Program-made: the position numbers and the translations under genes | Shown here: positions 34,845-53,798 of the stretch, piece after piece | How positions within the stretch are numbered: position 1 is the stretch's first letter | How the letters are laid out: every line of letters begins with the position of its first letter | The notes under the pieces: generated by a model | What the model was told of the DNA's origin: nothing | What the model saw: the letters and a program-made list of their open reading frames with translations, nothing else | Database searches by the model: none | Assembly (NCBI GenBank): GCA_000002435.2 | Contig: CM018791.1 | DNA: 64,000 nucleotides | Source: Giardia intestinalis | Lineage: Eukaryota | Strand: one strand, 5' to 3'

Positions 34845-34981
34845 CGACAGAAAATGATTGGTGACTCCATAGCCAGAGAAGATGAGTAGGTAACCCGAGT
34901 CGTCCAGACGTGGAAATGCCGGCTGTATATTTACTGAAGCAGAAAGGGTACACAGAAAAGAGACTTTTGATGAAGGCCGCT

Positions 34982-35902: not shown

Positions 35903-35977
35903 AAATTGTTTTTTGCCTTTACTGATTTACACTGGTGTGAGCCGGTTCGGATCCTCTCGGACCCTTCATGGGAGTAA

Positions 35978-36655
35978 CTATATCTTTCGCTGTATAAGGT
36001 AACGCTTAATAGTCTTAAGTTGCCAAACAGTGACGCCAATGTACGTTACTATGCATAAAAGGTTTGTAACAACAACACTACGCCTCGTGGAGGAGATCTG
36101 AGATTCAAACCGGTCAAAGTTGGTGTGTATTACTTCTGCCTGCTGGTCAATTGCCTTCGCCTTCGCTAAGAGCCTAGTTACAGTTTGCTCCTCCTGTCTG
36201 CGCTTTGCATCCACCGAGTCATTGGCTGGGGCGTGGCTCTCTATTGAGAGACTCATGCGACCGACCGACTTGTCCATCTTTGCAGAGCCGCCACCAAGGC
36301 AGACCTTGTAGTCGCCTACTTGCCGGGGGCTGAAGAGAAGCTCCCCCCTGTCCGAGAGCTGAGTGTCAAAGACAACCGCGTCATAAACGTCGTATATTTG
36401 CAGTAAGACACTGCTAGTTCGCTGATTGAGCGATGTGCTCCCTTTGGCATAGAGCTCCGGGGTATTGACGGAATACAAAAGCCGAATGTCTTGATCGACA
36501 ACGGCCTTGTGCCGGAAGCAGATTACGTTAGAGTTTGTAAAGTCAAAGTACAGAGCATTGGTGGCGGTTAATAGGAACAGCAAGGAAAGCATACAGTGGC
36601 TGATCGACAGCTTCAAAGCGTCAAATTGAAAAATCAAGCCAAAGTAATAAGCCAA
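35978..36655 (-). CDS. p24/TMED (emp24/GOLD-domain) cargo-receptor family protein.
   Basis: Signal peptide, a GOLD-like region (ALYFDFTNSNVICFRHKAV...GDYKVCLGG), a coiled segment, then a single TM helix and a short basic tail (VVVTNLLCIVTYIGVTVWQLKTIKRYLIQRKI). Confidence 0.65.
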   Translation of the reverse strand: MAYYFGLIFQFDALKLSISHCMLSLLFLLTATNALYFDFTNSNVICFRHKAVVDQDIRLLYSVNTPELYAKGSTSLNQRTSSVLLQIYDVYDAVVFDTQLSDRGELLFSPRQVGDYKVCLGGGSAKMDKSVGRMSLSIESHAPANDSVDAKRRQEEQTVTRLLAKAKAIDQQAEVIHTNFDRFESQISSTRRSVVVTNLLCIVTYIGVTVWQLKTIKRYLIQRKI

Positions 36656-36701
36656 AAAGTAATGTATAGATATTTGGTTACAGTTTTATCTGAAACTGTC
36701 C

Positions 36702-37295
36702 ATGACACCCGATGGCGAGGAAAAAGCCACTAAAGATCAAAAACCGTCTCCGCTTTGCTTAAGCAGCGATGTCTTTGTAACATTTGAGTACACGGTTAGC
36801 GGGGAGGAGCCCAGCCAACCCTGCTACACAAAGAACTCCAACCATGCTTTTTCTACCTCTCAGGATACAATAGGAGAGCTAATTGCAGATACTGTGCTTG
36901 TCAGGGGTATGCCACTTGCATCAGGAAGAATGCTAAAACAGATCCTATTGAGCTGTGTTTCTGCTATCGTTTCAGCGGACGATTATCCCGCATCCATTAG
37001 GCAAAGTCTTGTCAAGCACATCAGTGATGCTAGTGTCTCCAGTCAGGTGATTAGGAGGCGTTACATTACCTACGGTAGGGAGCATCAGAACATATTGAAA
37101 GGTCTTCTTCATAGCGCCGTGGCCTGCAGTGTCTCATATAACTTAACGACTGATCCAGCTGTGCTTTCACACATGGTAACCTACATGAACGCGCTTCTAC
37201 CCACTGGAGAGATAAAGACCATAGTCTGTGGGATCTCCAAATTTGATGAAAACGCACCTGGGTCTATGCTTAAATCCGCCTTTTTTCGTCTCTAG
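36702..37295 (+). CDS. Hypothetical protein (197 aa).
   Basis: ORF bounded by neighbouring genes. No motif recognised. Confidence 0.35.
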   Translation: MTPDGEEKATKDQKPSPLCLSSDVFVTFEYTVSGEEPSQPCYTKNSNHAFSTSQDTIGELIADTVLVRGMPLASGRMLKQILLSCVSAIVSADDYPASIRQSLVKHISDASVSSQVIRRRYITYGREHQNILKGLLHSAVACSVSYNLTTDPAVLSHMVTYMNALLPTGEIKTIVCGISKFDENAPGSMLKSAFFRL

Positions 37296-37378
37296 GAGTT
37301 GATGCCAACAATGAGCTATGTAGGATATTATCCAATAAGCTTGTCAGTATTACAACAAACCTTACAGTAAGCGCTACA

Positions 37379-38584
37379 ATGAAACCCAGTAAGTTCTGTG
37401 ATGAGATTGCTCGCGCCTTGCGTGATTTATCGAGCAACCGAGAAATCTTGTACATGGGCTGCTTAATGCAATGGCAGAACAAGGCATTTACCATCCTCTA
37501 TGAACAGCATTTCTCTGATGTCATAGAAGTAGTCCACAAGTTGACCATGAAGATTCTGAATATGTCTGTTTCAATGAAAGAGCAGTTTCGGTCTTTCTTG
37601 GCCCAGTATGAACTTAGTGTTAAGGGCCCTTCTGTTACTGATGAATCTATCGGGTCTGATGCTTCAGGCGCTGAACCGGCTTCCAGGAAGACTTTATCAA
37701 AAGTGGATACTGAAGCAGGGCTTCGCCCCGCGTTGCGAGTGTATAGTACTGTACGTTGGACGTACTTATACATATGTATTCTCAACTTTTATGAAAATCT
37801 AGAGCGGCTCATAGCGTTCATAAGTCGGTGCCCGAATACAACCTCTGTTCTTTCAAAGCATCTTGCTACACAGCTTATTAACCTTACCTGGATTCGGCGA
37901 TTGGCGTTCCTTGCAGATATCTTCCAGCTCTGTAGGGGCCTCCGACTCCTAATGGAAGGGCCACGTATTGTACCGGGGCACGCGCTGCTGGAGATGGGCG
38001 GGCTCCGGGACGCGCTGCAGACGGTGCTCGCCGAGCTCCGGGCCGGGGTCTGGACCCGCCTCCCCCGGCTGGGTGCGCGCCTTCGGGATGGGGCCGCACT
38101 CCCTGACGAGGAGAGGAGGTCCCTTGCGGGCGCCCTGGAGGCCTTTGTCGCCGAGCTCGATGCGTGCTTGTCGGCGTACCGGCAGTGCCTTCCGCTTCTC
38201 CGGCTGACGGTGTCCCCCGTGTGTGCCCCGGCAGCGGGAGGAGCGGCGCCTCCGGAGCCATTCCCGGTTCCAGGGGTGGACCGGGACGGGTTTACCGCGG
38301 AGTATCGGGGCTTCAGCGGCGGAGAACGCGGAGACGCGCACCGGCGTTGCCTGGAAAGAATTCGCGGCATGACGTGCAACGCGGCCCGCTGGAACGCACT
38401 AGTGACCTTCTGGGCGGACCAGAGGGCAGCGTATCCGCAGACCAGCCGGGCCGCGCTCGGGCTCCTGACGGTACTCGCGACCGTCTGTGCCTCCGAAGTA
38501 TCCTCCTCCGCGCTCAAGCGGGCCCTGAGCCGGGGAGCAGGCGCCGTGCTCCTTGCGCGCCTCGACGCGCGCGTGGGCGAGTAA
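37379..38584 (+). CDS. Hypothetical 401-aa ORF that is compositionally chimeric. The N-terminal ~200 aa are AT-normal. The C-terminal ~200 aa (from 37979) are about 80% GC, Ala/Leu/Arg-rich, and lie inside the inverted repeat.
   Basis: Uninterrupted frame across the composition jump. The GC-rich half reads as a plausible helical protein (HALLEMGGLRDALQTVLAELRAGVWTRLPRLGARLRDGAALPDEERRSLAGALEAFVAELDACLSAYRQ...). Confidence 0.35.
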   Translation: MKPSKFCDEIARALRDLSSNREILYMGCLMQWQNKAFTILYEQHFSDVIEVVHKLTMKILNMSVSMKEQFRSFLAQYELSVKGPSVTDESIGSDASGAEPASRKTLSKVDTEAGLRPALRVYSTVRWTYLYICILNFYENLERLIAFISRCPNTTSVLSKHLATQLINLTWIRRLAFLADIFQLCRGLRLLMEGPRIVPGHALLEMGGLRDALQTVLAELRAGVWTRLPRLGARLRDGAALPDEERRSLAGALEAFVAELDACLSAYRQCLPLLRLTVSPVCAPAAGGAAPPEPFPVPGVDRDGFTAEYRGFSGGERGDAHRRCLERIRGMTCNAARWNALVTFWADQRAAYPQTSRAALGLLTVLATVCASEVSSSALKRALSRGAGAVLLARLDARVGE

Positions 38585-38595
38585 AGCAGGGAAAG

Positions 38596-38668
38596 TACCG
38601 ACGACGGGGCTCGAACCCGCGACCACAGGATTAAGAGTCCTGCGCTCTACCGACTGAGCTACATCGGC
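38596..38668 (-). tRNA. tRNA-Lys (anticodon CTT), left inverted-repeat copy.
   Basis: Reverse complement of the cloverleaf GCCGATG-TA-GCTC-AGTCGGTA-GAGC-G-CAGGA-CTCTTAA-TCCTG-TGGTC-GCGGG-TTCGAGC-CCCGT-CGTCGGT-A. It has a GTTCGAG T-loop, and the A/B-box positions are conserved. Confidence 0.8.
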
Positions 38669-38732
38669 GCGACCGCACGCAGAATATCAGAATGACTTGT
38701 AATTTTGCTAGCAGTGTGTTGGTATTTGATCA

Positions 38733-41159
38733 ATGGCCGTTCTGCCGTCCGGCTACACGTACCTCCAGACCCTCGAGGACGGCGTCCTTCGCAAGCTCTA
38801 TACGGCCGCCCGGCACGATGGCGTCTCCTGCCTTTGTGAGGAGGTCTTTGTTGGACCTCCCCCTGCGCCTTCTGCCTCTTCGCTTCGCGCCTGTCCTGCC
38901 CTGATCGCTCGCCTCGATTCGCCCTTCCTTGGAAAATACATTCTTGTCCAGCCAGATAATCAGCGCAGGTCTGTCTTTCTTCTTTCCCAGCATGTCCAGG
39001 ATTTCTCTCTCTTCACTCTCTTTACGGCCCACACAGGCTCGCGACCATACACTCCAGAGGATGATATATGGCAAATTTTATATGGCGCACTTCAAGGACT
39101 GGCCTATCTTCATAGCCCTTTGGCAAAGCCTGTTCTTGTTCACGGTGCAATTTCACCCACCTCGGTCTATGTGTCTAGAGATGGAGCTGGGCTTTTGCGG
39201 TCACTGTGGAGCGTTCGAGAAAGTGGATCCCCCTTTACGGGCGACGCATACTCACCCCTCACCCCATACGTAGCCCCCGAGGTCCTGAAATCTCAGGCCA
39301 TAACTACCAAGGCAGACGTTTGGGCTCTTGGTTGTATAATTTATGAACTATGTGTGCAAAAGCAACTCTTTGCTGCGGCTAGCGAAGAAGAGATGGTCGC
39401 GCGTATCCTCACACCCGTGTCTGTCACCTTGCCGCCACAGTACTCGCGCGACTTAGTGACCGTTCTTCGCGCCATGCTTGAACAAGACCCGTTCCAACGG
39501 CCAGGAGCTGTTGTTCTTCTCGGACACCCTCGCTTCGAGCACTTCGATAATTCCCTCCCTGAGGATCACGAGGCTACCGCTGACTGCAAAGATCCTACCC
39601 TTTCTCGTGTCAACACAGTGCTAGCAGACAGCACAATGTCCTTTAGTTCCGTTGGCAGCTCTGTGGCCCCACTTCTTCCCGAATCTAATAGCCCCCTTTC
39701 CCAGGCAATTGCCGCCGGCAACAAGACTGCATTTACGAAGGCGCTAGGGGCATGGAAAGGGAAAGCAGACTCGAACGGCTACTCCAGCCTAATGTACGCC
39801 ATAGTCTATCAGAATACACCGATGGCTAAGCTTCTATTGAAATCGGATGCAGGGCTCCAGGACCGCACTGGCCGAAGCGCACTTATGTACGCATCTTCCT
39901 ATGACAAACTTGAACTCGTTCAAGAACTGATCCGGCGCGAGGGACGCCTTCGCGACAGGGCTGGGCGAACGGCGCTAATGCATGCAGCAGCGTCTGACTC
40001 CTTGCTGTCTATACGAGCCCTCATTCCCCTCGAAGCAGGGCTTGCCGATAATGAAGGCTCAACTGCCTTGATGATCGCCATTAAGAGCGGCGCATATCGT
40101 GCCGTGAGCATGCTTTATATTCAGGAAGCCAGATATCAATCTATGCTGGGAAAGACCGCCCTTATGCTTGCTGCACAACTTGATTGCGGCGTAGCCATCA
40201 ATCTGCTTGCAGAGGAGGAGACATACCTTGAGGACTCGTATGGGATGACTGCATCCCAATATGCCGAGCTGGCTGGTAACCAAGTTGGCGAGCTAGCACT
40301 TCGAGAACATGATCAAACCATAGTAACCGGGAAAACAGTTGCGGGGAGGCTGAGCTCTCTTCCTAAGCTGGGAATCAAAGGCGGGGCCCTGACCCTCGAG
40401 GAACGAGAACGCGTCAATATGCTGTCGGGATCACTTCCCAGAGATGAGCAAGGCAATACGTCGTTAATGCTGGCTATTCTGGAAGGCGATCGAATCTCTG
40501 CCGAAAGCTATCTTCCGAGCCAGATGGGCTTTAGAAATGCTGATTCAGAAACAGCCCTTATGCTTTGCGCAAAGAAGAATCTATCTGGTATCGCTGCTCT
40601 TCTCCTTGCTGCAGAGTCGGGACTGCGCGTTGGGCTTAGCTCTTCTGTGCCCAAGGAGCGAGTTGGCATGACTGCGCTCATGCATGCAGCAGAAGCAAAT
40701 GCAGTAGAGGTGTGCAAGGTCCTTTTGACAGCAGAGGCCGGGTCAGTGCGAAAGGACGGCAAGACGGCCCTTATTCTTGCCGCTATGGCTGACGCAAAAG
40801 ACGCTGCCCTTGTCTTGGGAGCTTGTGATAAAGAGGCAGGCCAGCATGACACAAACGGCTTCACAGCTCTGATGGGGGCTGTGCAGCATAGAAATGTAGA
40901 TCTTGCCAAGCTTCTATTGAAGAAAGAAGCCGGCTTTCAGAAAAACGACGGCACTGCTGCGATACACATTGCAGTGTTTCTCGAAGATGTCGCCTTGGTA
41001 AAGCTGCTCTTTTCTTATGAAAAGGACTTGCAGCTAGCAGACGGCAGAACTGCCCAGACGATTGCAATTGCTCTTAACAATCCTGCATTGCAGGCTGTCT
41101 TCGATGAACCCACAAAGAAGCGCTCCAAAAGCCGGGCACAAGGGAGCGCCAAGCGATAG
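38733..41159 (+). CDS. NEK-like kinase domain fused to about 14 ankyrin repeats (a Giardia 'Kinase, NEK' / 21.1-type protein). It is a predicted pseudokinase. This is the left inverted-repeat copy.
   Basis: Kinase fold with HGAISPTSVYVSRDGAGLL replacing HRDLKPxN...DFG, APEVL and DVWALGCIIYEL. 'TALM' ankyrin repeats follow (SALMYAS, TALMHAA, TALMIAI, TALMLAA, TALMLCA, TALMHAAEA, TALILAA, TALMGAV). Confidence 0.85.
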   Translation: MAVLPSGYTYLQTLEDGVLRKLYTAARHDGVSCLCEEVFVGPPPAPSASSLRACPALIARLDSPFLGKYILVQPDNQRRSVFLLSQHVQDFSLFTLFTAHTGSRPYTPEDDIWQILYGALQGLAYLHSPLAKPVLVHGAISPTSVYVSRDGAGLLRSLWSVRESGSPFTGDAYSPLTPYVAPEVLKSQAITTKADVWALGCIIYELCVQKQLFAAASEEEMVARILTPVSVTLPPQYSRDLVTVLRAMLEQDPFQRPGAVVLLGHPRFEHFDNSLPEDHEATADCKDPTLSRVNTVLADSTMSFSSVGSSVAPLLPESNSPLSQAIAAGNKTAFTKALGAWKGKADSNGYSSLMYAIVYQNTPMAKLLLKSDAGLQDRTGRSALMYASSYDKLELVQELIRREGRLRDRAGRTALMHAAASDSLLSIRALIPLEAGLADNEGSTALMIAIKSGAYRAVSMLYIQEARYQSMLGKTALMLAAQLDCGVAINLLAEEETYLEDSYGMTASQYAELAGNQVGELALREHDQTIVTGKTVAGRLSSLPKLGIKGGALTLEERERVNMLSGSLPRDEQGNTSLMLAILEGDRISAESYLPSQMGFRNADSETALMLCAKKNLSGIAALLLAAESGLRVGLSSSVPKERVGMTALMHAAEANAVEVCKVLLTAEAGSVRKDGKTALILAAMADAKDAALVLGACDKEAGQHDTNGFTALMGAVQHRNVDLAKLLLKKEAGFQKNDGTAAIHIAVFLEDVALVKLLFSYEKDLQLADGRTAQTIAIALNNPALQAVFDEPTKKRSKSRAQGSAKR

Positions 41160-43097
41160 CCGAATTGCAGCCTCACAGAATGTGACACACTGGCCTGTGG
41201 TTACTAGCTTTGGGAGGCCTGGCCTATGGGCTTCAATTGCCATACTTATCCACCAAGAATGAACACTGCGAAGGTGCCTACTCATTATTTGACAATTCAG
41301 GTTTTACACATGTTTCCTTGTGCATTATTGGGAGGAAGCATGAAAAATCCACATTCTTCGAAGGTAAAGCTCCTGTCCCCTACATCTATTTTCTAATAAA
41401 GCATTCAACTGCACAGACTAAGTGCTGCAGCTATCTCATGGTATTGAAAACCGTATATACAGGCTTTATCCTCAGACCTGCTAGAGTTGATTGGGGGGCC
41501 ATTAGCCTACTAATTTGACATGAACAGAAGGAGTAATGTGCCTATTCGGTCGACATTGAGGGTTAAACCACACCAATGACTGACTATGTGCCACACGGAT
41601 CACTCCCAGTAAGCATTTGTTACAAACTAGAGAGTCCTGCACGGTCAATTTACAGCACATCTTTCCATCATAACCTTCAAAGTAGGCGTCCATTCTGTTA
41701 TCACATAGCCTGTTGAGCCATGAGTGACACCTGCAACGTTTCTGCTTAACAGATTAAATGTTCTAAGCTTGTTCTTTGAATAATAAGTATAGCTGTCCCG
41801 TATTATTTACACAGAGGTGAAGACACGATACACTTATGCGCCAGGATCGCATTAAATTAGACCTTGATTGATAGCTATATATTCTACTGATTGCTCGCGC
41901 TCTTGGATTGCAGAATGAATAAAAGGTAGCTAGATTGCATGCATTACTATTGTAGAGTAAGTTATTTTAGGACGGATCCTGCAATCCTACTGGTGTCCAT
42001 CTCCCTAGATATCTGCATCTGGAGAGGACTGTTTCCTGGCTGCCTGTGACAAGCATAAAGGAAACGTGTCTTGAAGAAAAGCACATTCACAGGGTCGTAT
42101 ATTAATGCGGCTCAGCATGTCCATCAAGATTGGCATCGGATGGACTTCTGACAGCTGAGTACAGGAGTGCCTAGTTGCGCAAACTGTGGACCCGCAGTTC
42201 CTAAGCATACTAAGTAGCATCTCTTCAGTTCTGTGGCCTAAGTCAAGCGTTCTGCAGATAGACTCCTAAGTTAATGTGCTTCTGGCTATGATTTTCAGCT
42301 CTGGAGGTTCTGTCCCGTCCGCAGACTACTACTTCTAGATACAGTCTTTCTGCATCGGGAGTGAGGGGCTCTGTGGCCTCTTACTCTCCCTTCATACAAA
42401 TACAGACAGGTCCTTGCAGAAGAGACCCAGAGCTCTTGTAGCATTTACGCTGTGGCTACGCACCGTACCTCCCCACGCTTCTCTCGGATACTCACGGCGG
42501 CTGTATCCCTGGTTGTCCACGCTACGTTGCCCCACATGAGAAGTCCATTAGCGAAGCGCTTGTGGTCACCGAAGCTGCCTGCTCAATATCGGTTAGCGGC
42601 CTTCACCGGTATTTCACGTCCACATATGCAAGGGGCACCTGCGTCTCAGCGCCGTCCCTCAGGCACTGTAGCAGGCGAGGTCTGACTTCGCTGCATTGGC
42701 GGTTTCGTGATATGCATCCAGCTACCCGATGTTTGGCAATGGTCTGTGCCAATTCCTGAGCAACTGGTAACAAATCCTTACCTGTTTAGAGTCATACCTG
42801 TGAAGGGTGTCCCTTACATCACGGAAGACCCTAGCCGCCGGTCGACGCTCGGCGCCAGATGCCTCCTGCGGGCCACGAGGAGCGAATCTGCATGGGTCTT
42901 CCCACATGCTGCTAGCGCCGGGCCGCCCGCCCATTGCGCGCATGACCAACGCCTCGGCGCCAGACCCGCAACGCAGGAGGAGTGTGTGTTCATTCACTCT
43001 TTGCAAACGAGCAAGATATTCAGATCCAGCCCCAACAATTCTTAAGTAATGAGCTGCGACGTCTAAGCTACAGCCGTATTCAATGATTTACAGAAAA

Positions 43098-46000
43098 TTA
43101 GAGCTGAACCATGGATGGTTGTCTGGAACCATTTAGTAGAGGTGCAGTAGAGTACATAGACGCAGTAAGACTAGAATTGCGAGTGAGTTGCGGCTTAGGA
43201 AGCCCGCGACCAGGCTTCCGCGGGGCACGCTCCCTCAGTACACCGCTCTTCCTGGGCCGTATCACGAACCACCAGACGAGGAAGCCGGCCACCGCAGCGA
43301 GGACGAGGAGAACGACGACCACGATCGCAGCTGTTGTGCCGGCAGACGATTTGTTAGATGGAGCAGGGACTCCGCAGACGAAGTCGCTTGTGAGAGAGAA
43401 GCCTTCATCGCATATGCAAGTGGGCTTTACGCCGTTCTCAGACACGCACCTGCCGTTGCCCCCGCAGATCGTCACGGTGCCGTCGGTGCCGCGCTGGATG
43501 CACTGGCTGCTGATGCAGAGCCCCTCGGAGACGGTCTCGTAGCCGCTTCTGCAGCTGCACAAGCCCCCGTCGGAGAGCTGGCAGTCGCCGTTCCCCCCGC
43601 ACAGCGTTCCACTGGAAACGCAGGCCGATGGGTAGCAGAGGGTCCCGTGGAGGGTCCAGCCTTGTCTGCAGCTGCAGATCGCAGAGGACCCTTCACCAGT
43701 ACACTCTCCTCCGCCGTTGCAGACTTTCCCGTCCTTGAGACACCTTGTGGGGATGCAATCAGTCTTGACCAGAGTATAGTCTTTTGCACACAGGCAGCCG
43801 TAGGTGTCGCCGGTCTTCTCGCAGGCGCCGAAGCCGCTACAAAGCTTGTTGTCTGACGAGACGCAGCTGCTATGCACACAACCATTTTGACCAGGGAGGT
43901 TCTTAAAATTGGGGGCCTGGCAGTTGCATGTTCCTGTGTCACCGGTCTCCGTGCACGTCCCACCACCATCACAAACTTCTGAAAGAATGCTCTCGTGCGC
44001 CCCGAAGCACTCCTTGACGAAGCACTGGCCGGTCTTCTTGTCTGTACGGTACCTGCTGTTGTCGCACCTGCACATTCCTGTACCAGTGGTGGCTTCAACG
44101 CATGTTCCACGGTTATTACATATCTTAGTAATGTCATCAGCGTGATCTCTCGGCATGCATTCTCTATATACGCAGACACTTGATCCAATGAGAATTGTTC
44201 CAGAATTGCAACTACATTCCCCAGTGGCCTCGCCGTTGTCATTGCACGTACCCATACCATAGCACGTTTTTTCTGTCTGATCGTATGGATCCGTCCAGAC
44301 GCACCTGGACTTCCGGCACTTCTTGCTAGCACTGTCAACGACGAAGCTCGAGTTGACGCAGACGCAGTTGAAGCTACTGCCACCAAACTGACAAGTTCCT
44401 GCATCAGTATTTTCTTCCATACTACAGCTATCTTTTGGACAGTTGCTAAGATAACATCGCTTATCTGTGTGTTCCAGGTACCCATCATTGCAAGCCTTGC
44501 ATTGAGGACCTTCGTACCCAGGGTAGCACTTACATGTCTTTTCTTCTATAGAGCAAGTTCCCCTTCCGCTGCATATCATGGTTGTGTCTGTCTCCGAGAC
44601 AGCACATACCTCCGGGATACACACATAATTTCCTAATATGCCTTTGACTGTTTTGTAGCCAGACTCACAGCTGCAAGAATATTCTACGGTATGATCCCCC
44701 TTGCATGTTCCGTGACCAGAACACTCGACATTCCTGAAGGTGTTTCCAGGCAGGACGTCACTGAGACACACTCTCTTGATGCACTTTTTATTCTCCAGCT
44801 GGACAATGTCAGATCGCTCTATACACTTGCAGTAGGGTTCGGATGACTGAGTGGTATTCAGAATGCACATTCCAAACTGTCTTCCGCCGCATGTAGTATT
44901 CATTTTGGTGTTATCTAGTTTTGTAATCTCAAATATGCAAGCCTTTGGCAGACAGAACCCATCAAGTTCTTCGTACCCGTCAGGCCTCGGGTCCTTGCAC
45001 TTACAAGCGTAGTCTCGACGATCGCCGTGCGACGCTATCTTTGTGCACACACCAATCGTGTCACCGCCACATACGGATTCAGTGAGCCTTCCGTTACTGT
45101 CTGTAGCATTGATGAAGCAATTGAGACCAACACAGACCTTATCCACCAACTTGGTCCCTAGATTGCATATGCATCCATCAGGTCCACACCTACCCGCGCC
45201 TCCACAGATCACCGGTACGTCCTTGTCTTTACTAGAAATACACTTTTCTAGCACGCATGTCTTCCTCAGCTCGCCGCTTGCGTCTCTAAGTGTATACGCA
45301 TTCGCACCATTAGTACACGTGCATTGCTTGTCCTTCAATAAACCGTTGGCACTGCATGTTCCCAGCCCGTTACACTCTATGGCGGCGTCGTTCGCAGACG
45401 CCCTATACATGCACTTGCTCGGGACACACGTGTCTCTATTTCCATCTTGATTTCTTTTATCACTCAGTTCGTAGCCCTCGGAGCAGACGCAGCCGTAGCG
45501 GTTATCATCTCCCTTCACGCACGAAGCCAAAGAGTCACCTCCGCAATACTTATCCCCAGACATGCAGCTTTGGTGAACGCAAAGCCCATTAAAAGACTTG
45601 TATGAAAAAGCACACTTGCACGAGTACGTGTTTCCATTAGAATCTTGTGTGCAACTCCCAACGGTGCCGTCGTAGACCTTGCATTCGACGTACTTAAGTT
45701 CTCCATTGTGGATCACCTTTCCGGCGCACCCGGGGTGAGTGCAGTAACCACCAAAGGCCTCAAAACCATCCTTACACTCACATCCATATCGGCCGGTCAG
45801 CTGGTTGTACGCGCAGACTCCCTTCCCAGAGCAGACGTGGCGATCTAACGTTAGCTTCCTTGCATCGGCTGCCGTCACGCCCACAGGCAGGCAGTCGTAG
45901 CTGTAGCACATGTCACCGATCCTCAGGAAGCCCGGGTTGCAGGTGCAGGACTCATTTTCGTTTATGTAGCCAGCTCCGGGGCCGCCGCATAGACCTCTTG

Positions 46001-48179
46001 CTAGCTTAGTCTGTGGATTCGCATTCTTGCTTTTTAAAATGCACGTCTTGTTGTATGTAACATAGTCCCCAGTGCAATTACACTGCCACGTCGTGTCCCG
46101 GCCGACGGTGCAGTGGAGTTCGTGACTGCCCAGCGCAGCGCAGTACTTAGGTGCTCCTGGGCCGGCGAGCTTTTTATCAAGCTTGCACGCATTGGTGACG
46201 CACGCCTTTAAACTTTGGTCCCACGTAGCATCTGGACCGCAATCGCATTCATATCCTTCGTTACCATCCTTCTTTTTGACACAGTCTCCCACACCACCAC
46301 AGTAATTGTACCACATATGATAAATAGATCTACCGTCGTGACAGTCGGTATGCATGCAGGTTGCATTGTTTTCCCCAAAGTGTACAAGATGAAAGCCAGT
46401 TGGGCACACAGTGCACGTTTCAGGTAGATTGGAGCCTTCAGAAGGCTTAGCACAGGTTGGCATTCGATCGTCCTGAAGACTATCTGTCAGCCCCTCTAGG
46501 AACCCACAAAAGAACCTTCTTGTCTTATCTATCTTACTGATAAATACACATCCAGGTTTAGCAGAGAAGGTGCCGTTGTAGGCTGAAACGTTCCCATCAC
46601 TGGAGCCTTTAGGGACGCATGTGATGAACGGATTGCTAGGATCTCCATAAGTGGTGTACGTGCCTGTGTTCCCGCAGATATCCTGAGCAGTAGCCGTGCG
46701 CAGACTGGGCTGTGGATCCGGTGGTTGTTGTTGCACAATGCACTTCTTTGCAATGCATTTCTTGTCAATCACTTGCGCATTTTGTTGATTACATTCTGCG
46801 CACTTAGCTCCTGTGTAGATAGGCGAACACTGGCACGTCATCGTATAAGGAGCCTCAGCACTAACGACAATGCGTCCATGATCACTGCAAACCGTGGCAG
46901 GGATATCCACCAGACTGCTCAAGATGCAGCGCCCTGGAGCGATGTAGGTATAGTCCTGATCACAAGTGCATTGTATATTTCGTAGATCGTCCGTCTTGCA
47001 CGTGCCGTGCCCCGAGCAGACCTTCCCAAGTTCCTCGTCCATGCACGCGGGGGACGTGCACTCTCCGTCAACGGCAATGAGCATGTCCGGGCAGCGGCAG
47101 TGGTACTCGCCATCGAACTTGACACATGTTCCTCCGTTCTTGCATGATTCTCGCTTGTCTGAGGTGAGGCATCCCACTGGAACGCACTTGCCATTTATCT
47201 TAGCAGACTTGTCAGTGCAAGTATCGCAGAGGTCGCCCGTGGCAAGTCCCCGGCAATCGCACTTATAGCCAGCGCCGTCACGCACACAGGCGCCCACTCC
47301 GCCACAGATCTTCGAGTTGGAGCTATCGGTGCAGGTCGGATGCGTGCAGAACTCACCAACCTGGACTGCATTAGAATCGCAAACACACCTGAAGGTGCCG
47401 GTATTTCCCTCATCTGTGCAGTTCCCAAAGCCCCCGCAGACGACCGGGGACCCGTCGATCGTGGCCACGCACTCTGTCCTGACGCACTTGTGTCCAACGC
47501 GTGTATATCCCGTCTCACAGGCACAACGGTAGTGGTATGATTCGCGATTGAGGCCTACGTCGAGGACACAGTTACCATGTCCTGAGCACACAGTGCCGTC
47601 AGGATCCTGGCAAGCCCGTGGGTTACAAGTGGGGAGATTGTCCTGTGAGGGAGTCTTAGCATCAATTGCGTTGGCGTCGTCGCACGACTGGCAGAGACTC
47701 CCGCGGTAGATCGGGTAGCAGTCGCACGCGTAGTCGTCAGCACTCAGCCCGGCCAGCCCGGGGTCCTTCAGGAGGCAGCGGCCGCGGCCGTTGCAGGGAG
47801 GCTTCGTTGCCTCCTGTCCTGAGAGGTCACCGGTGTTGAAGCAGCTCTTCGGCAGGCACTCGCCCTCGTAGGACACGAAGCCATCGGGGCAGGGGTCGCA
47901 CGAGTACGCCCCCGCGTAGTAGGTGCACTTGTTCGACTCTGTGCACTCCGTCCCGTTCACGAGGCAAGCGTAGTTGACGGCCCTGTCTGCGGGTGTCTGC
48001 CCACTGGTAGTTACCCTGCGGAACCCTGCACGGGGAGCATCGCACGCAGCCCCCGCCCAGCCCCGCCTGCACTGGCAGAAGTATGCTCCGTCCCCGTAGG
48101 TGCAATTTCCGTGGACGCACTCGGGGCCTGTTCCGCATGCACTGGCGAGGAATGCAATAGCATACAGGAGAATCAGCAT
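43098..48179 (-). CDS. High-cysteine membrane protein (HCMP), 1693 aa. It has a signal peptide, a long EGF/VSP-like CXXC-CXC-rich ectodomain, a single C-terminal TM helix and a 45-aa cytoplasmic tail. It lacks the VSP CRGKA terminus.
   Basis: N-terminus MLILLYAIAFLASACG. Hundreds of Cys in GxCxC, CxxC and CxCxxGY patterns. C-terminus AIVVVVLLVLAAVAGFLVWWFVIRPRK. The initiator ctttaaaatcactgtATG lies on the minus strand, and TGTAAAT follows about 8 nt after the stop. Confidence 0.85.
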   Translation of the reverse strand: MLILLYAIAFLASACGTGPECVHGNCTYGDGAYFCQCRRGWAGAACDAPRAGFRRVTTSGQTPADRAVNYACLVNGTECTESNKCTYYAGAYSCDPCPDGFVSYEGECLPKSCFNTGDLSGQEATKPPCNGRGRCLLKDPGLAGLSADDYACDCYPIYRGSLCQSCDDANAIDAKTPSQDNLPTCNPRACQDPDGTVCSGHGNCVLDVGLNRESYHYRCACETGYTRVGHKCVRTECVATIDGSPVVCGGFGNCTDEGNTGTFRCVCDSNAVQVGEFCTHPTCTDSSNSKICGGVGACVRDGAGYKCDCRGLATGDLCDTCTDKSAKINGKCVPVGCLTSDKRESCKNGGTCVKFDGEYHCRCPDMLIAVDGECTSPACMDEELGKVCSGHGTCKTDDLRNIQCTCDQDYTYIAPGRCILSSLVDIPATVCSDHGRIVVSAEAPYTMTCQCSPIYTGAKCAECNQQNAQVIDKKCIAKKCIVQQQPPDPQPSLRTATAQDICGNTGTYTTYGDPSNPFITCVPKGSSDGNVSAYNGTFSAKPGCVFISKIDKTRRFFCGFLEGLTDSLQDDRMPTCAKPSEGSNLPETCTVCPTGFHLVHFGENNATCMHTDCHDGRSIYHMWYNYCGGVGDCVKKKDGNEGYECDCGPDATWDQSLKACVTNACKLDKKLAGPGAPKYCAALGSHELHCTVGRDTTWQCNCTGDYVTYNKTCILKSKNANPQTKLARGLCGGPGAGYINENESCTCNPGFLRIGDMCYSYDCLPVGVTAADARKLTLDRHVCSGKGVCAYNQLTGRYGCECKDGFEAFGGYCTHPGCAGKVIHNGELKYVECKVYDGTVGSCTQDSNGNTYSCKCAFSYKSFNGLCVHQSCMSGDKYCGGDSLASCVKGDDNRYGCVCSEGYELSDKRNQDGNRDTCVPSKCMYRASANDAAIECNGLGTCSANGLLKDKQCTCTNGANAYTLRDASGELRKTCVLEKCISSKDKDVPVICGGAGRCGPDGCICNLGTKLVDKVCVGLNCFINATDSNGRLTESVCGGDTIGVCTKIASHGDRRDYACKCKDPRPDGYEELDGFCLPKACIFEITKLDNTKMNTTCGGRQFGMCILNTTQSSEPYCKCIERSDIVQLENKKCIKRVCLSDVLPGNTFRNVECSGHGTCKGDHTVEYSCSCESGYKTVKGILGNYVCIPEVCAVSETDTTMICSGRGTCSIEEKTCKCYPGYEGPQCKACNDGYLEHTDKRCYLSNCPKDSCSMEENTDAGTCQFGGSSFNCVCVNSSFVVDSASKKCRKSRCVWTDPYDQTEKTCYGMGTCNDNGEATGECSCNSGTILIGSSVCVYRECMPRDHADDITKICNNRGTCVEATTGTGMCRCDNSRYRTDKKTGQCFVKECFGAHESILSEVCDGGGTCTETGDTGTCNCQAPNFKNLPGQNGCVHSSCVSSDNKLCSGFGACEKTGDTYGCLCAKDYTLVKTDCIPTRCLKDGKVCNGGGECTGEGSSAICSCRQGWTLHGTLCYPSACVSSGTLCGGNGDCQLSDGGLCSCRSGYETVSEGLCISSQCIQRGTDGTVTICGGNGRCVSENGVKPTCICDEGFSLTSDFVCGVPAPSNKSSAGTTAAIVVVVLLVLAAVAGFLVWWFVIRPRKSGVLRERAPRKPGRGLPKPQLTRNSSLTASMYSTAPLLNGSRQPSMVQL

Positions 48180-48767
48180 ACAGTGATTTTAAAGATGGCT
48201 CCGGGTTATTATGTGCTAGCATACCATGAATATAAGAAGGAAACTTGTAAGTTTGTCATTTACAAACGAAAGTATACTGTTTCTGAGCTGTCCTCAGATG
48301 CTGCGTATAGCAGGATTAAATCGATACGTCACAAGGTTGTAGTTATTTACACGTCTTTTAAATATTGCTTCATTTCAACGAGGCGTTGCTTCAGTCTTCG
48401 TAGACATAGAGCACTATATGGTTGCACTCTTGATACTGAAGGCTAAAAGCGCTGAATTTCGAGGATTGCTCAGACTGATGAAGTAGATTGACACGAGTAC
48501 CAGGTCATTGTAACGTCGATAGCTATTGCCGTCATGCAAGGAGACGTTATGTCACGAAAAGGCCACGACTCAGATATTCTCGGTAGAGTAAAGAATTGCT
48601 CTTACAAATGAAGAATAAGAGGCGTGAAGGGACAGACAGTGGAGCAGAGTACAAAACGAAAAGGCAAGCTAATTGCTTTCTTTTAGTGGCGTATACATCC
48701 ATGAGACAGACCTCGCGGGCCCATTGCAGTCGATCTCCGTGATCAACGGGAGAGTCTGTGGCCCTTG
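48180..48767 (-). promoter_or_regulatory. Unique 588-bp upstream region of the HCMP gene, lying between the gene and the right inverted-repeat arm. It contains the AT-rich initiator immediately 5' of the ATG.
   Basis: gccatctttaaaatcactgtATG (minus-strand reading) at 48180-48200. No ORF reaches 60 aa except a spurious plus-strand one. Confidence 0.5.
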
Positions 48768-50578
48768 TGCGGGTCTGGCGCCGAGGCGTTGGTCATGCGC
48801 GCAATGGGCGGGCGGCCCGGCGCTAGCAGCATGTGGGAAGACCCATGCAGATTCGCTCCTCGTGGCCCGCAGGAGGCATCTGGCGCCGAGCGTCGACCGG
48901 CGGCTAGGGTCTTCCGTGATGTAAGGGACACCCTTCACAGGTATGACTCTAAACAGGTAAGGATTTGTTACCAGTTGCTCAGGAATTGGCACAGACCATT
49001 GCCAAACATCGGGTAGCTGGATGCATATCACGAAACCGCCAATGCAGCGAAGTCAGACCTCGCCTGCTACAGTGCCTGAGGGACGGCGCTGAGACGCAGG
49101 TGCCCCTTGCATATGTGGACGTGAAATACCGGTGAAGGCCGCTAACCGATATTGAGCAGGCAGCTTCGGTGACCACAAGCGCTTCGCTAATGGACTTCTC
49201 ATGTGGGGCAACGTAGCGTGGACAACCAGGGATACAGCCGCCGTGAGTATCCGAGAGAAGCGTGGGGAGGTACGGTGCGTAGCCACAGCGTAAATGCTAC
49301 AAGAGCTCTGGGTCTCTTCTGCAAGGACCTGTCTGTATTTGTATGAAGGGAGAGTAAGAGGCCACAGAGCCCCTCACTCCCGATGCAGAAAGACTGTATC
49401 TAGAAGTAGTAGTCTGCGGACGGGACAGAACCTCCAGAGCTGAAAATCATAGCCAGAAGCACATTAACTTAGGAGTCTATCTGCAGAACGCTTGACTTAG
49501 GCCACAGAACTGAAGAGATGCTACTTAGTATGCTTAGGAACTGCGGGTCCACAGTTTGCGCAACTAGGCACTCCTGTACTCAGCTGTCAGAAGTCCATCC
49601 GATGCCAATCTTGATGGACATGCTGAGCCGCATTAATATACGACCCTGTGAATGTGCTTTTCTTCAAGACACGTTTCCTTTATGCTTGTCACAGGCAGCC
49701 AGGAAACAGTCCTCTCCAGATGCAGATATCTAGGGAGATGGACACCAGTAGGATTGCAGGATCCGTCCTAAAATAACTTACTCTACAATAGTAATGCATG
49801 CAATCTAGCTACCTTTTATTCATTCTGCAATCCAAGAGCGCGAGCAATCAGTAGAATATATAGCTATCAATCAAGGTCTAATTTAATGCGATCCTGGCGC
49901 ATAAGTGTATCGTGTCTTCACCTCTGTGTAAATAATACGGGACAGCTATACTTATTATTCAAAGAACAAGCTTAGAACATTTAATCTGTTAAGCAGAAAC
50001 GTTGCAGGTGTCACTCATGGCTCAACAGGCTATGTGATAACAGAATGGACGCCTACTTTGAAGGTTATGATGGAAAGATGTGCTGTAAATTGACCGTGCA
50101 GGACTCTCTAGTTTGTAACAAATGCTTACTGGGAGTGATCCGTGTGGCACATAGTCAGTCATTGGTGTGGTTTAACCCTCAATGTCGACCGAATAGGCAC
50201 ATTACTCCTTCTGTTCATGTCAAATTAGTAGGCTAATGGCCCCCCAATCAACTCTAGCAGGTCTGAGGATAAAGCCTGTATATACGGTTTTCAATACCAT
50301 GAGATAGCTGCAGCACTTAGTCTGTGCAGTTGAATGCTTTATTAGAAAATAGATGTAGGGGACAGGAGCTTTACCTTCGAAGAATGTGGATTTTTCATGC
50401 TTCCTCCCAATAATGCACAAGGAAACATGTGTAAAACCTGAATTGTCAAATAATGAGTAGGCACCTTCGCAGTGTTCATTCTTGGTGGATAAGTATGGCA
50501 ATTGAAGCCCATAGGCCAGGCCTCCCAAAGCTAGTAACCACAGGCCAGTGTGTCACATTCTGTGAGGCTGCAATTCGG

Positions 50579-53005
50579 CTATCGCTTGGCGCTCCCTTGT
50601 GCCCGGCTTTTGGAGCGCTTCTTTGTGGGTTCATCGAAGACAGCCTGCAATGCAGGATTGTTAAGAGCAATTGCAATCGTCTGGGCAGTTCTGCCGTCTG
50701 CTAGCTGCAAGTCCTTTTCATAAGAAAAGAGCAGCTTTACCAAGGCGACATCTTCGAGAAACACTGCAATGTGTATCGCAGCAGTGCCGTCGTTTTTCTG
50801 AAAGCCGGCTTCTTTCTTCAATAGAAGCTTGGCAAGATCTACATTTCTATGCTGCACAGCCCCCATCAGAGCTGTGAAGCCGTTTGTGTCATGCTGGCCT
50901 GCCTCTTTATCACAAGCTCCCAAGACAAGGGCAGCGTCTTTTGCGTCAGCCATAGCGGCAAGAATAAGGGCCGTCTTGCCGTCCTTTCGCACTGACCCGG
51001 CCTCTGCTGTCAAAAGGACCTTGCACACCTCTACTGCATTTGCTTCTGCTGCATGCATGAGCGCAGTCATGCCAACTCGCTCCTTGGGCACAGAAGAGCT
51101 AAGCCCAACGCGCAGTCCCGACTCTGCAGCAAGGAGAAGAGCAGCGATACCAGATAGATTCTTCTTTGCGCAAAGCATAAGGGCTGTTTCTGAATCAGCA
51201 TTTCTAAAGCCCATCTGGCTCGGAAGATAGCTTTCGGCAGAGATTCGATCGCCTTCCAGAATAGCCAGCATTAACGACGTATTGCCTTGCTCATCTCTGG
51301 GAAGTGATCCCGACAGCATATTGACGCGTTCTCGTTCCTCGAGGGTCAGGGCCCCGCCTTTGATTCCCAGCTTAGGAAGAGAGCTCAGCCTCCCCGCAAC
51401 TGTTTTCCCGGTTACTATGGTTTGATCATGTTCTCGAAGTGCTAGCTCGCCAACTTGGTTACCAGCCAGCTCGGCATATTGGGATGCAGTCATCCCATAC
51501 GAGTCCTCAAGGTATGTCTCCTCCTCTGCAAGCAGATTGATGGCTACGCCGCAATCAAGTTGTGCAGCAAGCATAAGGGCGGTCTTTCCCAGCATAGATT
51601 GATATCTGGCTTCCTGAATATAAAGCATGCTCACGGCACGATATGCGCCGCTCTTAATGGCGATCATCAAGGCAGTTGAGCCTTCATTATCGGCAAGCCC
51701 TGCTTCGAGGGGAATGAGGGCTCGTATAGACAGCAAGGAGTCAGACGCTGCTGCATGCATTAGCGCCGTTCGCCCAGCCCTGTCGCGAAGGCGTCCCTCG
51801 CGCCGGATCAGTTCTTGAACGAGTTCAAGTTTGTCATAGGAAGATGCGTACATAAGTGCGCTTCGGCCAGTGCGGTCCTGGAGCCCTGCATCCGATTTCA
51901 ATAGAAGCTTAGCCATCGGTGTATTCTGATAGACTATGGCGTACATTAGGCTGGAGTAGCCGTTCGAGTCTGCTTTCCCTTTCCATGCCCCTAGCGCCTT
52001 CGTAAATGCAGTCTTGTTGCCGGCGGCAATTGCCTGGGAAAGGGGGCTATTAGATTCGGGAAGAAGTGGGGCCACAGAGCTGCCAACGGAACTAAAGGAC
52101 ATTGTGCTGTCTGCTAGCACTGTGTTGACACGAGAAAGGGTAGGATCTTTGCAGTCAGCGGTAGCCTCGTGATCCTCAGGGAGGGAATTATCGAAGTGCT
52201 CGAAGCGAGGGTGTCCGAGAAGAACAACAGCTCCTGGCCGTTGGAACGGGTCTTGTTCAAGCATGGCGCGAAGAACGGTCACTAAGTCGCGCGAGTACTG
52301 TGGCGGCAAGGTGACAGACACGGGTGTGAGGATACGCGCGACCATCTCTTCTTCGCTAGCCGCAGCAAAGAGTTGCTTTTGCACACATAGTTCATAAATT
52401 ATACAACCAAGAGCCCAAACGTCTGCCTTGGTAGTTATGGCCTGAGATTTCAGGACCTCGGGGGCTACGTATGGGGTGAGGGGTGAGTATGCGTCGCCCG
52501 TAAAGGGGGATCCACTTTCTCGAACGCTCCACAGTGACCGCAAAAGCCCAGCTCCATCTCTAGACACATAGACCGAGGTGGGTGAAATTGCACCGTGAAC
52601 AAGAACAGGCTTTGCCAAAGGGCTATGAAGATAGGCCAGTCCTTGAAGTGCGCCATATAAAATTTGCCATATATCATCCTCTGGAGTGTATGGTCGCGAG
52701 CCTGTGTGGGCCGTAAAGAGAGTGAAGAGAGAGAAATCCTGGACATGCTGGGAAAGAAGAAAGACAGACCTGCGCTGATTATCTGGCTGGACAAGAATGT
52801 ATTTTCCAAGGAAGGGCGAATCGAGGCGAGCGATCAGGGCAGGACAGGCGCGAAGCGAAGAGGCAGAAGGCGCAGGGGGAGGTCCAACAAAGACCTCCTC
52901 ACAAAGGCAGGAGACGCCATCGTGCCGGGCGGCCGTATAGAGCTTGCGAAGGACGCCGTCCTCGAGGGTCTGGAGGTACGTGTAGCCGGACGGCAGAACG
53001 GCCAT
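50579..53005 (-). CDS. NEK-like pseudokinase/ankyrin protein, right inverted-repeat copy. Its 808-aa translation is identical to 38733..41159.
   Basis: The ORF track gives an identical protein sequence. Confidence 0.85.
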   Translation of the reverse strand: MAVLPSGYTYLQTLEDGVLRKLYTAARHDGVSCLCEEVFVGPPPAPSASSLRACPALIARLDSPFLGKYILVQPDNQRRSVFLLSQHVQDFSLFTLFTAHTGSRPYTPEDDIWQILYGALQGLAYLHSPLAKPVLVHGAISPTSVYVSRDGAGLLRSLWSVRESGSPFTGDAYSPLTPYVAPEVLKSQAITTKADVWALGCIIYELCVQKQLFAAASEEEMVARILTPVSVTLPPQYSRDLVTVLRAMLEQDPFQRPGAVVLLGHPRFEHFDNSLPEDHEATADCKDPTLSRVNTVLADSTMSFSSVGSSVAPLLPESNSPLSQAIAAGNKTAFTKALGAWKGKADSNGYSSLMYAIVYQNTPMAKLLLKSDAGLQDRTGRSALMYASSYDKLELVQELIRREGRLRDRAGRTALMHAAASDSLLSIRALIPLEAGLADNEGSTALMIAIKSGAYRAVSMLYIQEARYQSMLGKTALMLAAQLDCGVAINLLAEEETYLEDSYGMTASQYAELAGNQVGELALREHDQTIVTGKTVAGRLSSLPKLGIKGGALTLEERERVNMLSGSLPRDEQGNTSLMLAILEGDRISAESYLPSQMGFRNADSETALMLCAKKNLSGIAALLLAAESGLRVGLSSSVPKERVGMTALMHAAEANAVEVCKVLLTAEAGSVRKDGKTALILAAMADAKDAALVLGACDKEAGQHDTNGFTALMGAVQHRNVDLAKLLLKKEAGFQKNDGTAAIHIAVFLEDVALVKLLFSYEKDLQLADGRTAQTIAIALNNPALQAVFDEPTKKRSKSRAQGSAKR

Positions 53006-53069
53006 TGATCAAATACCAACACACTGCTAGCAAAATTACAAGTCATTCTGATATTCTGCGTGCGGTCGC

Positions 53070-53142
53070 GCCGATGTAGCTCAGTCGGTAGAGCGCAGGA
53101 CTCTTAATCCTGTGGTCGCGGGTTCGAGCCCCGTCGTCGGTA
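53070..53142 (+). tRNA. tRNA-Lys (anticodon CTT), right inverted-repeat copy.
   Basis: gccgatgtagctcagtcggtagagcgcaggactcttaatcctgtggtcgcgggttcgagccccgtcgtcggta folds as a 73-nt cloverleaf. Acceptor stem 7 bp with G-U pairs, D-stem GCTC/GAGC, anticodon stem CAGGA/TCCTG, loop CTCTTAA, T-stem GCGGG/CCCGT. Confidence 0.8.
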
Positions 53143-53153
53143 CTTTCCCTGCT

Positions 53154-53798
53154 TTACTCGCCCACGCGCGCGTCGAGGCGCGCAAGGAGCACGGCGCCTG
53201 CTCCCCGGCTCAGGGCCCGCTTGAGCGCGGAGGAGGATACTTCGGAGGCACAGACGGTCGCGAGTACCGTCAGGAGCCCGAGCGCGGCCCGGCTGGTCTG
53301 CGGATACGCTGCCCTCTGGTCCGCCCAGAAGGTCACTAGTGCGTTCCAGCGGGCCGCGTTGCACGTCATGCCGCGAATTCTTTCCAGGCAACGCCGGTGC
53401 GCGTCTCCGCGTTCTCCGCCGCTGAAGCCCCGATACTCCGCGGTAAACCCGTCCCGGTCCACCCCTGGAACCGGGAATGGCTCCGGAGGCGCCGCTCCTC
53501 CCGCTGCCGGGGCACACACGGGGGACACCGTCAGCCGGAGAAGCGGAAGGCACTGCCGGTACGCCGACAAGCACGCATCGAGCTCGGCGACAAAGGCCTC
53601 CAGGGCGCCCGCAAGGGACCTCCTCTCCTCGTCAGGGAGTGCGGCCCCATCCCGAAGGCGCGCACCCAGCCGGGGGAGGCGGGTCCAGACCCCGGCCCGG
53701 AGCTCGGCGAGCACCGTCTGCAGCGCGTCCCGGAGCCCGCCCATCTCCAGCAGCGCGTGCCCCCTGTGTGCAATGGGCAACATCGTAAGGTGCAACAT
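53154..53798 (-). CDS. Truncated copy of the GC-rich C-terminal half of the 37379..38584 ORF. The frame reopens only 12 codons outside the repeat (MLHLTMLPIAHRG), so it is probably a non-functional remnant.
   Basis: Identical to the GC-rich segment from HALLEMGG to ...ARVGE. The N-terminal half found on the left side is absent here. Confidence 0.3.
   Translation of the reverse strand: MLHLTMLPIAHRGHALLEMGGLRDALQTVLAELRAGVWTRLPRLGARLRDGAALPDEERRSLAGALEAFVAELDACLSAYRQCLPLLRLTVSPVCAPAAGGAAPPEPFPVPGVDRDGFTAEYRGFSGGERGDAHRRCLERIRGMTCNAARWNALVTFWADQRAAYPQTSRAALGLLTVLATVCASEVSSSALKRALSRGAGAVLLARLDARVGE

Follow-up and report, generated by a model that had tools for sequence, protein, structure and literature searches.

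A 64,000-nt stretch of Giardia intestinalis DNA (the window; from contig CM018791.1 of GenBank assembly GCA_000002435.2, the 2020 PacBio reference of WB) contains a perfect palindrome in which two identical NEK-like genes lie in inverted orientation on either side of a gene for a high cysteine membrane protein (HCMP). Our results indicate that this is probably an old palindromic segmental duplication with homogenised arms, i.e. a structural and evolutionary feature of the chromosome and no dedicated generator of double-stranded RNA (dsRNA) for the HCMP gene. The latter role had been proposed in a sequence-only reading of the window, according to which transcription running on from the left NEK copy would give antisense HCMP RNA and transcription running on from the right copy would give sense RNA through the HCMP promoter. 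The window was compared with the genomes of DH (assemblage A2) and P15 (assemblage E), and RNA-derived contigs were used to follow transcription out of the arms.

Structure of the palindrome

A repeat search over the 64-kb window found a single inverted repeat. Its arms, of 4,996 nt each, are 100% complementary without a single difference and lie 5,797 nt apart (Table 1). As there is no second repeat of 60 nt or more in the window, a perfect inverted repeat of this size far exceeds chance. The identity of the arms is perfect up to positions 37975/53763 on the outside and 42970/48768 on the inside and there is none beyond, i.e. the points of divergence are abrupt. From outside to inside, each arm consists of the last 610 nt of an open reading frame (ORF) with a hAT C-terminal dimerisation domain (hAT-C ORF), a tRNA-Lys(CUU) gene, the NEK gene and 1,811 nt of ORF-free DNA. 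The repeat reaches 758 nt outward from each NEK start codon and 1,811 nt inward from each stop codon, which makes it larger than the gene-to-gene interval recognised in the sequence-only reading. The structural part of that reading is borne out: identical NEK-like copies surround the HCMP gene in inverted orientation, and both copies, on the plus strand at left and on the minus strand at right, point toward the central minus-strand gene. The distance from the NEK stop codon to the HCMP ORF is 1,938 nt on the left and 2,399 nt on the right.

Identity of 100% over 5 kb is also what a mis-join in the PacBio assembly, or a very recent event specific to WB, would give. The probability of such an origin is practically negligible. 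Both outer junctions are found in independent Illumina-based assemblies (Table 1), the second arm was partly present in the 2007 Sanger annotation, and DH and P15 carry the same palindrome with the same boundaries. Specifically, GL50803_135970 of the 2007 annotation is a 95-aa ORF equal to NEK residues 714–808 and located three genes beyond the HCMP gene; it is the partly assembled second arm. Moreover, 21 long contigs (L011 and 20 similar ones) stop 30 nt inside the right arm, at position 53734, which is the k-mer signature of entry into a repeat. On the strength of the junctions in independent assemblies, the Sanger ORF and the copies in DH and P15, an artefact is rejected and the palindrome is real.

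Conservation and concerted evolution of the arms

In P15, contig ACVC01000087 is collinear with window positions 63030–42003 and includes the right flank, the right arm, the spacer and the HCMP gene. It breaks off after 986 nt of the second arm, a stretch with 0 mismatches to the contig's own first arm and two gaps of the 454 type. The left flank is on another P15 contig, ACVC01000004, the last 205 nt of which are 100% identical, in inverted orientation, to ACVC01000087. The DH contig AHGT01000148 (L021; 6,664 nt) contains the whole spacer together with parts of both arms (419 and 468 nt). Its 419-nt inverted ends are 99.76% identical (1 mismatch) and the boundaries of the repeat lie exactly at the positions that correspond to 42970 and 48768.

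Between WB and P15 the parts of the arm have diverged to different degrees. The tRNA gene is 100% identical, whereas identity is 0.889 in the NEK coding sequence, 0.861 in the hAT-C part and 0.697, the neutral level, in the 1.8 kb of non-coding arm. WB and DH are 0.94 identical in the inner arm. Inside one genome (WB, P15 or DH) the two arms are 99.6–100% identical to each other, as compared to 70–89% between WB and P15. Since the non-coding part of the arms is 30% diverged between lineages and yet identical within each, these comparisons indicate that the arms evolve in concert. The mechanism is most probably arm-to-arm gene conversion within the chromosome. The left arm is likely to be the original and the right arm the copy, because only on the left is the hAT-C gene complete (a single ORF in P15).

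The palindrome can be followed less far in more distant Giardia. In an assemblage B contig (GS) the right flank, the tRNA and the NEK gene are in synteny and the contig stops inside NEK. The closest NEK of G. muris has 40% identity and is single-copy; it lies in another neighbourhood with no HCMP gene nearby, so that synteny is not shared. Two NEK contigs of 5,416 and 5,403 nt (L019 from SRR17450158 and L020 from ERR3333379) share only 73% identity with WB and 76% with GS. By these values they appear to come from a third Giardia lineage. Their lengths are near those of the repeat-limited contigs of WB, which hints that the duplication is present in this lineage as well.

Transcription of the arms and the spacer

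Transcription was followed in Logan contigs, which are short-read assemblies, partly transcript-derived, that carry no strand information. Among their sources, SRR10063826 (L001) is the RNA-seq run behind the reference annotation (PMC7000408), and SRR17933277–79 are rRNA-depleted, strand-specific RNA-seq of WB C6 (L009 is from SRR17933278). L001, L009 and contigs of 13 further samples (L002–L006, L010) run over the NEK gene and all 1.8 kb of non-coding arm and cross the right inner junction. In 15 of the 17 samples the contigs leave the arm solely via this junction, unbranched from 48767 to 48310. The end is exactly at 48310 in at least 14 samples; L009 continues to 48166. Among the 17 samples no contig runs from 42970 into 42971 and onward, and none was found that covers or spans the HCMP gene. 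ORFs that would span the junction 42970/42971 or run antisense to the HCMP gene were represented neither in the protein collection nor in the contig index (0 of 11 candidates). In two samples of undocumented type the contigs (L007, L008) go precisely as far as the inner boundary of the arm, as is expected when both inner junctions are present.

RNA across the left inner junction is thus absent or much rarer than RNA across the right one, and little or no stable RNA seems to enter the HCMP gene from the left arm. Identical arms should give a branch if both NEK copies were read through, and the lack of a branch in 15 of 17 samples disfavours symmetric read-through. Antisense HCMP RNA from the left copy, as postulated in the sequence-only reading, therefore finds no support. 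On the right side the picture is mixed. RNA does cross the junction in the direction of the HCMP promoter, but it mostly ends at 48310, and contigs of either strand would look the same, so that a plus-strand RNA fits as well. Clean termination of the NEK transcripts, which that reading had named as evidence against itself, was not observed either: RNA passes the NEK stop codons into the arm and over the right junction.

The poly(A) signal AGTRAA is absent from the NEK sense strand between the NEK stop codon and the HCMP gene on either side. This is weak evidence for read-through, because about 0.9 sites per 2.1 kb are expected by chance, 8 of the 21 ORFs in the window are likewise without AGTRAA within 400 nt, and 46.8% of mapped poly(A) sites in Giardia have no prominent signal (PMC3610916).

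L001–L003 join the left flank (34922–42970) through the arm to the right inner junction (48767–48310), a path that is absent from the reference orientation. It reflects either the collapse of identical arms in the de Bruijn graph or an isomer with a flipped spacer; short reads fit both.

Conserved element upstream of the HCMP gene

A 37-nt non-coding element (Table 1) stands out by its conservation: among the 40-nt windows of the 2.4 kb of non-coding DNA that separate HCMP from NEK, the one at the element has the highest identity (0.925 versus a median of 0.675). The element is unique within the 64-kb window and adjoins position 48310, the contig end in at least 14 samples, which is about 130 nt upstream of the HCMP start. 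We considered a structured RNA and rejected it on the basis of the fold z-scores (+1.2 and +0.6). No box C/D pattern conserved in P15 was found at the element, and presumably it does not match the 3' motif of Giardia non-coding RNAs. The element may be a boundary or 3'-end-formation element, or else a distal promoter element. A boundary element would limit arm-derived transcription before the HCMP promoter, the opposite of what the dsRNA proposal needs at this place.

Genes and other features of the arms and the spacer

Table 1. Coordinates of the palindrome and of the features in and around it
Feature	Position	Strand	Basis or remark
ORF GL50803_0022133, 401 aa, hAT C-terminal dimerisation domain	37379–38584	+	PF05699
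Left palindrome arm	37975–42970		100% complementary to 48768–53763; left-flank junction crossed by independent contigs L001–L003, L007
tRNA-Lys(CUU), left copy	38595–38668	−	Rfam tRNA, 71.8 bits; ARAGORN
NEK/ankyrin predicted pseudokinase, left copy, 808 aa	38733–41159	+	Pfam Pkinase and Ank; NCBI 'Kinase, NEK'
ORF-free inner left arm, 1.8 kb	41160–42970 (mirror 48768–50578)		RNA-derived contig cover
Unique spacer with HCMP gene	42971–48767		5,797 nt; fully spanned by DH contig L021
AGTGAAT poly(A)-signal match for HCMP mRNA	42992–42998	−	99 nt past HCMP stop; motif as in PMC3610916
EGF-like high cysteine membrane protein gene, 1,693 aa	43098–48179	−	NCBI/UniRef name; Pfam EGF domains
Conserved non-coding element, 37 nt	48316–48352	−	Invariant in WB, DH and P15; about 135–175 nt upstream of HCMP ATG
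Right palindrome arm	48768–53763		Right-flank junction crossed by L012; k-mer break 53734 in L011 and 20 similar contigs
NEK/ankyrin predicted pseudokinase, right copy, 808 aa	50579–53005	−	Identical to left copy
tRNA-Lys(CUU), right copy	53070–53143	+	Rfam; ARAGORN
Truncated hAT-C ORF copy, 214 aa	53154–53798	−	12 new N-terminal residues from flank; covered by RNA-derived contig L012

The two NEK copies are the NCBI proteins KAE8302677 and KAE8302679, of the same sequence and both named 'Kinase, NEK'. The 808-aa protein matches Pfam Pkinase (E=1e-18) and has ankyrin repeats; the best solved relatives of its kinase domain are human NEK1 (7e-17) and NEK2. In the alignment to NEK1 the Lys of VAIK is replaced by Cys, HRD by HGA and DFG by SLW, and the GxGxxG glycine loop is absent. 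As the catalytic residues and the glycine loop are all lost, the protein is a predicted pseudokinase with ankyrin repeats; the sequence-only reading had assumed a strong housekeeping-type gene. The NEK family is expanded in Giardia and much of it likewise consists of such predicted pseudokinases. The tRNA-Lys(CUU) gene lies 64 nt upstream of the NEK ATG, is divergent from NEK and was duplicated along with the arms.

The outer boundary of the repeat at 37975 cuts the hAT-C ORF, which is the hypothetical protein KAE8302676 (GL50803_0022133) of NCBI. The hAT C-terminal dimerisation domain at residues 341–385 is a weak, single-domain match (PF05699, E=3e-5; 24.1 bits, cut-off 21.4). No further Pfam match, such as a BED zinc finger or an RNase-H-like domain, was obtained with the 197-aa and 401-aa ORFs of WB or the fused ORF of P15, and homologues were found in Giardia only. 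The 197-aa ORF is GL50803_0015769 (36702–37295) of WB; together with the 401-aa GL50803_0022133 it corresponds to one ORF of at least 511 aa in P15 (L022, 10001–11533). The two WB ORFs may be one gene split by a stop codon or frameshift, or a mis-annotation.

The outer boundary 37975 (mirror 53763) is exactly where the G+C content rises from 0.42–0.51 (about 0.47) to 0.79. Up to the end of the hAT-C-like ORF (37975–38584; mirror 53154–53763) it is then about 0.70, and the remaining arm has 0.41–0.55. In other words, the 5' two-thirds of the hAT-C-like gene are of ordinary composition and lie outside the repeat, and the very GC-rich 3' third lies inside it. GC-biased gene conversion acting on the whole arm was considered as the source of the step and rejected, since the remaining arm is only 41–55% G+C.

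The inner 1.8 kb of the arm has no ORF above 112 aa and no Rfam match (the Rfam search gave tRNAs alone). Pfam searches with all its ORFs of 60 aa or more gave sub-threshold noise only, and in a tblastn search with 87 Giardia NEK, HCMP and ankyrin proteins the best E value was 0.04. With no similarity in Pfam, Rfam or tblastn, the possibility that this part is a recognisable pseudogene was rejected.

The central protein (1,693 aa) contains 187 Cys (11%), 28 CXC and 6 CXXC motifs, and it has EGF-like Pfam matches. Its N-terminus, MLILLYAIAFLASACG, is hydrophobic and resembles a signal peptide. There is one transmembrane segment (1617–1640), followed by a 53-aa tail that ends in PSMVQL and is without CRGKA. 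By its sequence this is a typical HCMP and not a variant-specific surface protein (VSP). The AGTGAAT match for its mRNA is inside the spacer, 22–28 nt from the left arm edge at 42970. Between WB and DH the HCMP has 90.5% amino acid identity, as compared to 99.0–99.6% for its neighbours, a NEK gene of 1,136 aa and an ankyrin gene of 238 aa; the central gene thus appears to evolve about 10 times faster than its flanks. A WB paralogue, P0074, is 73% identical. A homology search found no short-read-derived (Logan) fragment of the central HCMP in a collection of 5.8 billion proteins, and the contig index has no entry for the exact protein. Another HCMP of the same chromosome, unlike the central one, is present on 165 contigs.

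Discussion

Our results are best explained by a 5-kb segment that would have been copied in inverted orientation across the HCMP gene before assemblages A and E diverged. The copied segment would have comprised the 3' end of the hAT-C-domain gene, the genes of tRNA-Lys and of the NEK pseudokinase, and the non-coding 1.8 kb. Gene conversion from arm to arm within the chromosome has probably since kept the arms identical. The conserved element would act as a 3'-end or boundary element that shields the HCMP promoter from arm-derived transcription, and the most likely consequence of the palindrome is a doubled dosage of tRNA-Lys and NEK.

Several points weigh against this explanation. The duplication and conversion model does not account for the sharp step in G+C content at the outer boundary. 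Gene conversion is deduced from patterns of identity and not from direct observation, and the P15 and DH evidence consists of contigs, from short reads or 454 sequencing, that break off within the arms, so that identity applies to the stretches covered. Regarding transcription, RNA origin is documented for three runs and for the other samples is deduced from contig shape. Continuity of unitigs is an indirect proxy of coverage, and read-through of low abundance on the left would be clipped as a tip. Should L007 and L008 derive from RNA-seq, the left junction is crossed by some RNA after all. Antisense RNA over the central HCMP is possible, because in 59–64% of HCMP/CRMP genes antisense RNA equals or exceeds sense RNA.

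The dsRNA proposal holds that both NEK copies are read through, the left one giving antisense HCMP RNA and the right one sense RNA via the promoter, and that Dicer and Argonaute act on the resulting dsRNA to set HCMP expression. We regard it as unlikely. The convergent geometry fits, the NEK sense strand is free of canonical AGTRAA up to the HCMP gene, RNA contigs run unbroken from NEK through the 1.8 kb of non-coding DNA to 48310 or 48166, and two samples appear to contain both inner junctions. It is also true that antisense RNA is common over HCMP/CRMP genes, only 36–41% of which have more sense than antisense RNA. This last point cuts both ways, however: antisense and overlapping transcription occur genome-wide in Giardia, where 81% of tail-to-tail gene pairs overlap in transcription and the median 3' UTR is 80 nt (PMC3610916), and the palindrome is neither necessary for antisense RNA nor specific to it. 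Identical arms predict symmetry, yet no branch toward 42971 is seen in most samples; a missing AGTRAA is ordinary in Giardia; and the right-hand RNA halts at the conserved element before it reaches the HCMP promoter. Moreover, a transcript spanning the palindrome would form dsRNA of the arms, i.e. of NEK, with the HCMP gene in the loop, and according to a preprint HCMPs behave as ordinary genes, unlike VSPs. Of the proposal as a whole, the geometry and the non-terminated RNA on the right stand, but the antisense half, which is essential, does not. The missing antisense RNA could be explained if the locus were a conserved module that silences the HCMP gene. Both arms would then be read through, the right RNA would be stopped and stabilised at the conserved element, and the left antisense RNA would be missing from RNA assemblies because Dicer removes RNA paired with HCMP mRNA; gene conversion would serve to preserve a symmetric device for silencing a surface protein that evolves fast. 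We consider such a module very improbable.

The RNA at the right junction can be read in two ways, as minus-strand RNA that ends at 48310 or as a plus-strand sterile transcript that starts there. The second possibility, a divergent non-coding transcript that enters the right arm from about 48310 and heads for the 3' end of NEK, is rather unlikely but carries some weight. A start site in the spacer predicts the asymmetry between the right and left junctions, which favours this reading; sterile transcripts from bidirectional promoters are typical of Giardia and documented there (PMC1885649), and an initiator-like ATTAAA is found at 48316–48321 with the conserved block next to it. A minus-strand end is favoured by the precision of 48310, which is nucleotide-exact in at least 14 samples while 5' ends are ragged in the same samples. 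There, contigs do not reach the real 5' end, which varies (L002 and L003 begin 35–38 nt inside the 197-aa ORF), so that an exact position is more like a cleavage/poly(A) site or a branch in the graph. L009, moreover, passes 48310. It is quite improbable that the palindrome serves as a hairpin-RNA locus, with a 5-kb dsRNA stem targeting NEK, or as an invertible segment that flips the HCMP gene. Perfect 5-kb arms permit both, and the path from the left flank to the right inner junction in L001–L003 is what a flipped isomer would give. Collapse of identical arms, however, gives the same path, and inversion makes no new junction k-mers. The HCMP gene is spanned by no contig, the spacer has the same orientation in WB (PacBio) and in P15, and a flip leaves the relation between the HCMP gene and the arms unchanged. 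An old, homogenised duplication thus remains the explanation that we prefer.

If it is correct, the locus is a clean and datable example of concerted evolution common to assemblages A1, A2 and E, and it bears on recombination and gene conversion in an organism whose sexuality is debated. There is also a practical side: NEK, the tRNA and the transcribed non-coding 1.8 kb yield multi-mapping reads, and such reads are usually discarded. Should the dsRNA idea hold instead, control of the type of RNA interference (RNAi) would extend from VSPs to HCMPs. A literature search on Giardia palindromes, inverted duplications and gene conversion returned no Giardia paper, and no paper on the palindrome at this locus or on its conservation was found.

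Comparison with known systems

The locus resembles loci of cis-natural antisense transcripts (cis-NATs) and of hairpin-derived endogenous siRNAs in that its genes are convergent and its host has a Dicer and an Argonaute that could process overlapping transcripts. Unlike at cis-NAT loci, no overlapping transcript over the HCMP gene was found in the strandless Logan contigs. An RNAi model of VSP antigenic variation was reportedly put forward by Prucca et al. in 2008. That Giardia controls surface antigens by antisense RNA and RNAi, on which the sequence-only reading relied, is documented for VSPs, but the literature does not extend this control to HCMPs. In contrast to the VSPs of the RNAi model, HCMPs are without the VSP tail and are reportedly regulated like ordinary or stress-responsive genes.

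In its evolution the palindrome is comparable to the ampliconic palindromes of primate Y and X chromosomes and to the plastid inverted repeat, which are large inverted repeats with a unique spacer and arm-to-arm gene conversion. As in those systems, the arms are near-identical within a genome and diverged between lineages. The differences are in scale, 5 kb as compared to tens of kb to Mb, and in the host, which is a tetraploid, binucleate protist. Inversion isomers of the spacer are known for plastid inverted repeats.

Within Giardia, the palindrome is one more case of a known kind of locus, the identical gene pair in inverted orientation. The 14 VSP pairs of this kind reported by Adam et al. 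(2010) are head-to-head or tail-to-tail, have 2.2–3.8 kb between the ORFs and abrupt divergence points, and broke the old assembly (PMC2996952). Xu et al. (2020) counted 19 VSP pairs, 12 of them convergent, and found 6.9% of the genome duplicated (PMC7000408); a preprint of the Lujan laboratory lists some NEK kinases among identical duplicates. The palindrome shares with VSP pairs the identical inverted ORFs on one chromosome, the abrupt divergence points and a unique spacer of a few kb. It also shares their commonest arrangement, tail-to-tail, and contigs of older assemblies ended here too. Unlike VSP pairs, its arms hold a predicted NEK pseudokinase, a tRNA and a gene fragment and no VSP; they are about 5 kb as compared to about 2–3 kb, and the ORFs are 9.4 kb apart instead of 2.2–3.8 kb. 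The spacer, of 5,797 nt, is longer and contains an intact HCMP gene. Finally, whereas Adam et al. thought that the VSP pairs were possibly recent (PMC2996952), the palindrome is conserved across assemblages and its arms appear to evolve in concert.

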